Shown here: in pieces, positions 56,176 to 58,341 of the stretch
How positions within the stretch are numbered: the first letter of the stretch is position 1
Layout of the letters: every line of letters starts with the position of its first letter
NCBI RefSeq assembly: GCF_022846255.1
Contig: NZ_AP025682.1
Source of the DNA: Escherichia coli
Lineage (GTDB): Bacteria > Pseudomonadota > Gammaproteobacteria > Enterobacterales > Enterobacteriaceae
DNA length: 64,000 nucleotides
Direction: 5' to 3' (one strand)
Position numbers and translations under genes: made by a program
Notes under the pieces: model-generated
Database searches by the model: none
What the model was told of the DNA's origin: nothing
Seen by the model: the letters and a program-made list of their open reading frames with translations, nothing else

Positions 56176-56203
56176 TTCGTTATGTCTCATGCAAAATAAA
56201 TAT

Positions 56204-56227
56204 CCTCCGGCATAGCCGGAGGTTTTT
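56204..56227 (+). terminator. hairpin plus T-tract: TA-operon terminator and/or IS200 right-end subterminal hairpin
   Basis: cctccggc-ata-gccggagg followed by ttttt, 29 bp after the toxin stop; the assignment is ambiguous. Confidence 0.5.
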
Positions 56228-56303
56228 CAAATGCGCCTATAAGGCTCTCTTACCAGCCGCGCCCTAACAGGCGCACACGATCTGACATTTGCATCCAACT
56301 TCG

Positions 56304-56762
56304 TTACTTACGGCCCGTAAACGGGCTGCCCGGATAGGGAATCGATAACTGCTCTCCCATTTTATCCTCTTCAAGCTGGTGCTTTATGTAATCCTGTATC
56401 TTCGCCGTGTTCTTACCCACCGTATCGACGTAATACCCTCTGCACCAGAACTCCCTGTTCCTGTATTTGAATTTCAAATCACCAAACTGCTCGTAAAGCA
56501 TCAGACTGCTTTTCCCTTTCAGATATCCCATAAAGCCGGATACGCTCATTTTGGGCGGGATCTCCACAAGCATATGGATATGATCTGCACAGCATTCAGC
56601 TTCCAGAATCCGTACACTTTTCCACTCACACAGCTTTCTCAAAATACAGCCTATTGCTCTACGCTTCTCTCTGTAGAACACCTGTCTTCGGTATTTTGGC
56701 GCAAATACTATGTGATATTTACAGTTCCATCGGGTGTGCGCTAAGCTCTTTTCGTTCCCCAT
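56304..56762 (-). CDS. tnpA: IS200 transposase TnpA (HUH / Y1 single-strand transposase)
   Basis: ORF 56304-56813; start set at MGNEKSLAHTRWNCKYHIVFAPKYRR..., 152 aa; HUH motif (ADHIHMLV) and catalytic Tyr region; SD AAGGGGG. Confidence 0.9.
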   Translation of the reverse strand: MGNEKSLAHTRWNCKYHIVFAPKYRRQVFYREKRRAIGCILRKLCEWKSVRILEAECCADHIHMLVEIPPKMSVSGFMGYLKGKSSLMLYEQFGDLKFKYRNREFWCRGYYVDTVGKNTAKIQDYIKHQLEEDKMGEQLSIPYPGSPFTGRK

Positions 56763-56878
56763 TGGGACCCCCTTTTGATTTCTTGTTTGACACTTGCAGT
56801 TGCCAGACCGCAAGGTGTTTTAACAAATCAAAAGGGGTTTTAATAACTGGCTCAAAGCTGAAAGCTTTCCGGAACCCC

Positions 56879-56889
56879 CAGCCTAGCTG
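56879..56889. repeat. IS4 target-site duplication, left copy (CAGCCTAGCTG)
   Basis: Identical 11-mer immediately flanks both IS4 ends. Confidence 0.8.
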
Positions 56890-58314
56890 TAATGCCAGTC
56901 AGTTAAGCAACTGACTGGCTCTTTTTCGGGGCTGTGGGGTATTTCCAGGGCCTCTCCTTTACCACTCTCGGGAAGGCCCTTTCCCTTCTTGTCGGTAATT
57001 TCACAAGTTGTCCCATACTTGCAAGATCGCGCATCAGCTCCGGTATACGTCCCGGTGAAGCGCCCTGCAATGTCATCAGCATTCTCATCACCATTCCACA
57101 TGATTCTGAGAAACTCAGTTGATTCGGCCAGTAACCTTTCAGATGTTCCGCCATTTTAATCATCTGATATCTCACCAGATTATAAGCCAGTAAGACACCC
57201 CACAGCTCTTGCTCCACAAGCTCCGGTTTTTTACTTCTCAGCGTCAGCCTGCTCAGTTGCATCGTCTGTTTTATCTCCCTGTATCCCAGTTCGATTTCCC
57301 AGCGATGACTGTACAGATCCGCCATTTCTCCTCCGGGGAAGCGCATGGCGTCCGTCATCGACGTCAGCAGATGGCAGACTTTTCCTTTGCGCGTCACGGT
57401 CAGCAGGCGGGCTGTCACTTCATTTCCCAGTCCCGGCCACTTTTTTCGTGCCTGCGGGCTGGTTTTCAGCTTCACCAGATGATCGCCTTTACCCAGTTTT
57501 CTGATCTCTTCATATTGCGCTCCCTTTCTGAGAGGTATCATCCAGTGGCGGTGTTCTCCCGCCAGGCTCCAGGCATTTAACAGTCCCAGTGAGTAATAAC
57601 CTTTATCCATTAACGTCAGAGTGTTATCGCCGGTTTGTTCTATAAGTTGCTCAGCAAGCTCATTTTCGCTGTTCTTCATCGTGCCGAAGGCTGCAGCCGT
57701 CAGCAGATGGCTGGTCAGTTCCATCTGGCAGACCATTTTGACCTGCGGGTAGAGCGCCGGGTTCCCGGCATGTGTCTGGCGGGGGAAGGCTGCATCGTTC
57801 TCTGGTGTATCCGGTGTGCGCCAGAACACACCATCGATGGCCAGCAGGGTCAGGCCGCACCAGTGCGGATGCGGCGTGGCGTTATGCCAGAGCTGCGCTG
57901 TTTTCGTGAACACGCGGCGGACAGCCTCACTTCCCAGGCGCTGGCGGGCCTGAATAACGGCACTGGGGGCAACGAAGGGGCGATTGCCCGGCAGCATGAT
58001 GTCCAGGCGATTCACAATCTGGTGAAGAGGTTCTTTACGCTCAAGCGCCATGCCAACAATACACCAGACCATCATTTCGAGGGGAAGACGGCGCTTGCGT
58101 AGCGTTACAGTACCTGATTCGGCAAGGCAACGAGAGATGAGTTCGGGGTCGAGGTAATCCCCCAGAGAAGTCAGTGGGTTACGCAGAGAATCGTAACGGG
58201 ATACCAGATCAAGAGCCTGTCCAATGTGCATAAAAAAATCCGGAAACAAGTGAGCGTTTCCGGATTCTTACACAGCCACTGGATCGGTCAACTGATCCTT
58301 AACTGATCGGCATT
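56890..58314 (-). mobile_element. IS4 insertion sequence (complete)
   Basis: 1425 bp; 18-bp imperfect terminal inverted repeats TAATGCCAGTCAGTTAAG / TAATGCCGATCAGTTAAG (16/18); full transposase ORF; flanked by an 11-bp direct repeat. Confidence 0.9.
56903..58231 (-). CDS. insG: IS4 transposase (DDE)
   Basis: ORF 56903-58249; start set at [16 protein letters not shown]..., 442 aa, matching the IS4 InsG sequence as I recall it. Confidence 0.92.
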
Positions 58315-58325
58315 ACAGCCTAGCT
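58315..58325. repeat. IS4 target-site duplication, right copy (CAGCCTAGCTG)
   Basis: Identical to 56879-56889. Confidence 0.8.
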
Positions 58326-58341
58326 GGGGGTTTTCTGTGCA

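Follow-up and report, generated by a model that had tools for sequence, protein, structure and literature searches.

How does a complete insertion sequence (IS) come to lie within the left end of another, and is such a nesting an accident of one strain or the outcome of a preference for certain targets? The question is raised by a 64,000-nucleotide stretch of Escherichia coli DNA (RefSeq assembly GCF_022846255.1, contig NZ_AP025682.1), referred to here as the window, in which a copy of IS200C, an IS200 of E. coli, is split by IS4 in the intergenic gap between a GNAT-toxin gene and flgL. Our answer, which we hold with a probability of roughly 0.85, is that two insertions followed each other, with IS200C arriving first, IS4 then entering its left-end hairpin, and a target preference of IS4 behind the second event. 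A first-pass annotation of the window had described the nesting and its order; it did not note that this junction is found again, base for base, at many other sites and with IS4 facing either way.

The 11-bp direct repeat around IS4, CAGCCTAGCTG, was found where the first-pass annotation had placed it (Table 1). It is perfect, and its length fits the 10- to 13-bp duplications of the IS4 subgroup. Uninterrupted IS200C copies hold one CAGCCTAGCTG at the same position, so the repeat is IS200 target sequence and not an IS4 end. The alternative that it belongs to the IS4 ends was also rejected on the grounds that the repeats flanking the K-12 IS4 and seven other IS4 copies are unrelated. The sequence that remains when IS4 and one repeat are deleted (...GGAACCCCCAGCCTAGCTGGGGGTTTTCTGTGCACAA) is identical to uninterrupted IS200C. 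This result supports the proposed order, IS200 before IS4, and it identifies the DNA on both sides of IS4 as IS200. The element so restored measures 711 to 713 bp, close to the 710 bp that had been estimated, and the edge of IS4 lies 127 nt upstream of the tnpA ATG, the distance given in the first-pass annotation.

The IS4 itself is complete. The first-pass annotation had its start right, at 56890, but stopped it 1 bp short, at 58314 rather than 58315. The 18-bp imperfect terminal inverted repeats and the 442-aa transposase that it reported are both present. The repeats match at 16 of 18 positions (TAATGCCAGTCAGTTAAG versus TAATGCCGATCAGTTAAG); the end signature listed for the IS4 subgroup is -AATR (Table 1 of PMC2266710). 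The transposase, InsG, is encoded by a single unframeshifted open reading frame and scores 304.5 bits against the NCBIfam equivalog NF033592 (cutoff, 115); its DDE/YREK class is assigned by this match rather than from individually mapped D, D, E, and YREK residues. Identity to the K-12 IS4 is 99.65% at the DNA level, with two residue differences between the InsG proteins. Thus, the earlier impression that IS4 is intact was borne out: the copy is structurally intact.

The site that IS4 entered is a structure with a described function. Ellis et al. described a hairpin at nucleotides 12 to 34 of IS200 as a Rho-independent terminator, active in both directions, by which tnpA is guarded against impinging transcription; in their layout tnpA transcription starts at about nucleotide 40, and a stem-loop in which the Shine-Dalgarno sequence is hidden occupies nucleotides 69 to 138 (PMC4513863). 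After removal of IS4 and one repeat, the corresponding hairpin on the IS200 top strand, AACCCCCAGC-TAG-GCTGGGGGTT, has a 10-bp stem about 12 nt from the element tip and folds as DNA with -11.7 kcal/mol (z = -3.3). With IS4 in place only 4-bp stubs are left (-2.2 and -2.7 kcal/mol), which fold no better than shuffled sequence. The insertion puts roughly the first 18 to 29 nt of IS200 at a distance of about 1.4 kb, and IS4 together with one repeat places 1437 bp between the halves of the hairpin. The Rfam model RF01405 (STnc490, the IS200 leader or art200 region) matches positions 56772 to 56895 with 120.5 bits (gathering score, 56), and its first hairpin is broken exactly where IS4 begins.

The same IS200::IS4 junction, with the same 11-bp duplication, was found at at least nine different sites in E. 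coli genomes. Six of these sites, the window among them, have IS4 in the orientation seen here. The others with this orientation lie between an IS66 remnant and an Rpn gene; between hisIE and wzzB; beside hypT; between a truncated gspK (gspK') and glcA, where IS200 ends 38 nt into tnpA and where the copy of strain CFT073 belongs; and on an IncF plasmid, at which the left junction alone was checked. The three sites with the opposite orientation lie between sugE and ecnB, beside mlaA, and on plasmid pMS8345B. A junction probe made of 120 nt of IS200 and 60 nt of IS4, so that 80% coverage needs both parts, detected the orientation of the window in 219 genomes (about 4%) of a collection of 5426 complete E. 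coli genomes. The inverse orientation was detected in 3 genomes, two further records at 80% being two-piece artefacts, and the inverse right-junction probe detected 7 records. In strain A2, the composite at the hypT site carries ISEcp1-blaCMY-2 within its IS200 part, with about 66 nt of IS200 left beside IS4.

Beyond E. coli, an exact scan of species-representative genomes for the left junction gave no match, and the right junction gave one, a scar with an IS4-like end that has little bearing on host range. The scar is in a soil metagenome-assembled genome (JAGTSE010000032.1, about 441 to 493), where a 19-nt IS4-like end, CCTTAAGTGAACGGCATTA (16 of 19 positions as in IS4), is followed by CAGCCTAGCTG and the IS200 left tip; the surrounding DNA has no transposase. 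The scar is a hint of a related, IS4-like element having struck the same hairpin position in another organism.

To describe what IS4 targets have in common, seven other IS4 sites were rebuilt from their duplications: K-12 yjgZ-nanX, the adhE terminator, ynaJ-ynaI, a fimbrial-usher gene, fur-chiQ, yicI, and raiA-bamD. An A-run is present at all seven, and at six it is followed, after an 18- to 20-nt centre that is often palindromic, by a T-run; the fimbrial-usher gene has no clear T-run. The duplications at these sites are 12 to 14 bp long and often read CAGC...GCTG, and intrinsic terminators are plainly recognisable at three of the seven. With a spacing of 19, the IS200 hairpin, AA-CCCC-CAGCCTAGCTG-GGGG-TT, matches this pattern. 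IS200 left ends are thus a recurrent, base-precise hot spot for IS4, because their hairpin fits the A-run, palindromic centre, and T-run, and the nesting reflects a target preference of IS4 rather than a rare accident, because the exact junction recurs at many sites and in both orientations. In the IS4 subgroup, 'spectacular apparent insertion specificity' has been noted in the target arms (PMC2266710).

Two of the rebuilt sites have unusual repeats. In B2 strains (CFT073 adhE-tdk) a decayed IS4 lies in the adhE terminator, and its flanking repeats differ by inversion of the 4-nt loop (CCCCAGAAGGGG versus CCCCTTCTGGGG); ETEC1747 carries an intact IS4 at the same adhE-tdk site with a normal 12-bp duplication. 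At raiA-bamD, the 14-bp repeat that flanks IS4 in a terminator hairpin contains one mismatch (CAGCTCAAGGGCTG versus CAGCTCAAGGACTG). Work of the early 1980s reportedly placed IS4 targets in galT and the pheST attenuator and gave an AAA-N20-TTT rule, with which the pattern of the sites sampled here agrees. A literature search turned up no paper on this consensus, and to our knowledge IS200 was not among the IS4 targets listed.

IS4 appears to have hit the left-end hairpin of IS200 independently at several sites. This reading is favoured because IS4 and IS200 variants are incongruent across sites, because both IS4 orientations exist, at exactly the same IS200 position, and because the IS200 allele of the window occurs uninterrupted elsewhere. 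For example, the IS4 copies at hypT and sugE-ecnB match that of the window with 100% identity, whereas the IS200 parts at these two sites differ from that of the window at 13 of 694 and 6 of 694 positions, respectively, and the sugE-ecnB copy is inverted. The probability that all 13 differences would fall within the IS200 third is (694/2120)^13, or about 5e-7. The window IS200 is the common IS200C allele with one private difference (1 of 694 relative to uninterrupted copies), and near-identical uninterrupted IS200C copies, each one difference away, are found at opgE-ompX, at ydfZ-rspR, and at another site. Uninterrupted IS200C also occupies the hisIE-wzzB site, in 23 genomes.

Several observations weigh against stepwise assembly at each site. 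One uninterrupted hisIE-wzzB copy that was examined differs from the interrupted copies there at 10 to 11 of 694 positions, and because of this divergence it is not their direct progenitor. Either the insertion is an old one that diverged along with the highly variable O-antigen DNA beside it, or the site was entered by IS200C more than once. At the rne/flgL site of the window, IS200 with or without IS4 was found in none of the 5426 genomes; the strain or lineage of the window is therefore absent from the collection, and an intermediate with IS200 alone at this site is one that we infer. In addition, the composites at the window, IS66/Rpn, hisIE-wzzB, and gspK'-glcA show similar and small divergences (1 to 3 of 694 positions in IS200 and 1 to 11 of 1426 in IS4). 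Spread of the whole unit is conceivable for this subset, but nothing requires it.

A rival reading is a one-step origin, in which a 2.1-kb IS200::IS4 unit would have reached rne/flgL through the action of the IS200 TnpA on the outer IS200 ends. In single-stranded DNA, pairing across IS4 would re-form the hairpin from its outer stem halves, with the help of the repeats, which are partly palindromic, and of the inverted repeats of IS4. In favour of this reading, the lack of any genome with IS200 alone at the site would be expected, the four composites just named share junction, orientation, and duplication, and their divergence would allow the whole unit to descend from one ancestor. However, the independent hits evident from the two orientations and from the incongruent hypT and sugE-ecnB copies leave no need for such a move, the window carries the common allele that exists uninterrupted, and the local hairpin on which TnpA would act is destroyed. 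A genome that carries the composite twice did not come to light, though no systematic search for one was made. We therefore consider a one-step origin unlikely, and as the main explanation of the junction, composite transposition is rejected on the strength of the three opposite-orientation sites, the incongruent IS200 and IS4 variants, and the uninterrupted allele elsewhere.

It is very unlikely that IS4 was copied into IS200 by homologous recombination or gene conversion, or came with a horizontally transferred segment, with no local transposition. About 690 bp of IS200 homology on one side, the frequency of composites in E. coli (219 genomes), and the identity of the window IS4 to the hypT and sugE-ecnB copies would suit such exchange. 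On the other side, though, only 18 nt of IS200 extend beyond the duplication, a very short stretch for exchange by RecA; rne, toxin-antitoxin, and flgL sequence of native type, with 99.5% identity to empty sites, flanks the element; and conversion leaves the inverted copies unexplained. That the nesting is a mis-join of repeats during assembly has a negligible probability. IS4 and IS200 are both multicopy and prone to mis-assembly, but the duplication is perfect, removal of IS4 restores the hairpin exactly, and hundreds of genomes finished independently of one another contain both junctions.

The history that we prefer, two successive insertions, would have run as follows. An IS200C of the common allele would first have entered the flgL terminator, within its T-tract. 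IS4 would then have entered the apex of the IS200 left-end hairpin by ordinary DDE cut-and-paste transposition, duplicating 11 bp, and this second step would have been nonrandom, with IS4 drawn to a palindromic, terminator-like target.

As a consequence, the IS200 copy is probably immobilised and no longer efficiently excised by TnpA, judging from the single-strand mechanism of the IS200/IS605 family, whose TnpA recognises subterminal hairpins. Excision is unlikely because the left subterminal hairpin is split and the tip is 1.4 kb away; the relevant factor is the split hairpin and not how far tnpA lies from the left end. We infer that the terminator that insulates tnpA from upstream transcription has been lost as well. 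Read-through from insG into the tnpA leader is a speculative further effect, possible because insG lies upstream of tnpA and runs in the same direction and because the hairpin at the IS4 end has no T-run on the insG/tnpA strand. A promoter scan found nothing in the IS200 leader, and its sole match relevant to the composite was a promoter-like site inside IS4, upstream of insG. Translation of tnpA should still be blocked by the intact leader stem-loop and art200.

It is decidedly unlikely that the 2.1-kb IS200::IS4 unit can still be moved by the IS200 single-strand transposase, with its outer stem halves and the inverted repeats of IS4 re-forming the hairpin. If it could, IS4 would hitch-hike on the terminator-adjacent targeting of IS200, and the lack of IS200-only relatives at the site of the window would be explained.

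Table 1. Features of the nested element and the adjoining terminator (positions in the window)
Feature	Position	Strand	Basis
IS200C right end (3' of tnpA)	56195-56303	-	Limit where 12 copies at different sites diverge
IS200 tnpA, 152-aa Y1/HUH transposase, reading frame intact	56304-56762	-	NF033573 match
tnpA leader: Shine-Dalgarno-sequestering stem-loop and art200/STnc490 region, ending at the IS4 junction	56763-56889	-	Rfam; layout per PMC4513863
Target-site duplication, copy 1, CAGCCTAGCTG; corresponds to the loop and upper stem of the hairpin at the IS200 left end	56879-56889		Direct repeat
Complete IS4, 1426 bp; 18-bp terminal inverted repeats at 56890-56907 and 58298-58315	56890-58315	-	Near-identity to K-12 IS4
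insG, 442-aa IS4 DDE transposase; upstream of tnpA, codirectional	56903-58231	-	NF033592 match
Target-site duplication, copy 2, CAGCCTAGCTG	58316-58326		Direct repeat
Detached IS200 left-end tip, GGGGTTTTCTGTGCACAA on the + strand; outer half of the hairpin stem and terminal 12 nt	58327-58344	-	Identical in all copies compared; flanks diverge beyond
flgL intrinsic terminator hairpin; host sequence outside both elements, with IS200 in its T-tract	58348-58376	-	

The window has the E. coli chromosomal order rne, a DUF1778/GNAT toxin-antitoxin pair, the nested element, and then flgL and flgK on the opposite strand. The nested element lies where the GNAT-toxin gene and flgL converge, and no host gene is interrupted. 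The outer boundaries of IS200, 56195 and 58344 (each +/-1), were set where the 12 IS200C copies from different sites stop matching. The unoccupied site, CATGC-A7-TGCCCGCC, is present in 685 genomes with 99.5% identity and places IS200 within the minus-strand T-tract (T7) of the flgL terminator, whose hairpin survives and is now followed by five T residues. The A7 of the empty site, compared with A4 plus A5 at the occupied site, leaves at most an ambiguous AA and no clear target duplication for IS200. In all IS200C copies examined, the left end adjoins a GC-rich hairpin, mostly followed by a T-run (terminator-like or resembling repetitive extragenic palindromic [REP] sequences), which suggests that IS200C itself strongly prefers the 3' side of terminators. 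The toxin-antitoxin pair, a GNAT toxin and a DUF1778 (TacA-like) antitoxin at 55346 to 56175, between rne and flgL, is present in 686 of the 5426 genomes; no NCBIfam model matched either protein. Weak Rfam hits to isrJ and ncS54 near 55234 to 55326 fell under their gathering scores and were discarded.

The tnpA gene has the coordinates given in the first-pass annotation. TnpA scores 145.9 bits against NF033573, the NCBIfam equivalog for IS200/IS605 transposases (cutoff, 55), and keeps the HUH motif (H61-x-H63) and Tyr125, the residue altered in the catalytically dead mutant Y125F (PMC4513863). It differs by 1 to 5 residues from five other IS200 TnpA copies compared, the divergent variant of the hypT site included. 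The right end has a subterminal hairpin, CCTCCGGC-TAT-GCCGGAGG, at 56204 to 56222, predicted to fold with -10.0 kcal/mol (z = -4.96). The element has the features of the IS200 group: the size class of about 707 to 711 bp, a single Y1 HUH tnpA, no terminal inverted repeats, no clear target duplication, and subterminal hairpins at both ends, the left one after restoration. It is a disrupted member, in that the left-end terminator hairpin (nucleotides 12 to 34) is no longer contiguous with the leader; its membership by descent is unaffected.

Apart from the nesting, both elements closely resemble known ones. The K-12 IS4 (insG, between yjgZ and nanX) has the same length of 1426 bp, the same 18-bp imperfect inverted repeats, a 442-aa transposase, and a duplication within the 11- to 13-bp range. 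The K-12 copy, however, lies in non-IS DNA with a 12-bp duplication (ATCTTGGTTCTG), whereas the copy in the window is inside another insertion sequence. The IS200 part shares with IS200 of Salmonella Typhimurium and with E. coli IS200C its size class, one transposase of 152 aa with HUH and Tyr125, the terminator hairpin at the left end, the stem-loop in which the Shine-Dalgarno sequence is hidden, art200/STnc490, the right-end hairpin, and the absence of inverted repeats and of a duplication. It differs from them in the 1437-bp split of the left-end hairpin.

Insertion sequences that target palindromes or terminators include IS1397 and ISKpn1, found in REP sequences and bacterial interspersed mosaic elements, and the IS4-family ISRm22, found in REP sequences (PMC1525189, PMC2266710). 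Like the IS4 described here, they insert with base precision into a short structured palindrome in intergenic DNA. In contrast, the palindrome in the window is part of another mobile element, which probably needs it for movement and regulation. The kind of finding is already known, as both elements are textbook E. coli insertion sequences, nesting is common, and a preference of the IS4 group for symmetric targets is documented. The literature searched, which did not extend to the older IS4 and IS200 papers, held no description of this nesting or of the IS200 left-end hairpin as an IS4 hot spot.

As annotation, the locus is a routine nesting of two known insertion sequences in neutral intergenic DNA. 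The population result is a natural data set on target recognition by IS4 and on its preference for symmetric, terminator-like DNA, and in practice it calls for caution when E. coli is typed by its insertion sequences or assembled from short reads. Because the palindrome that IS4 enters is part of IS200 and likely needed for its movement and regulation, this is probably a case of one insertion sequence disabling another, a process that may help to explain why some IS200 copies hardly move.

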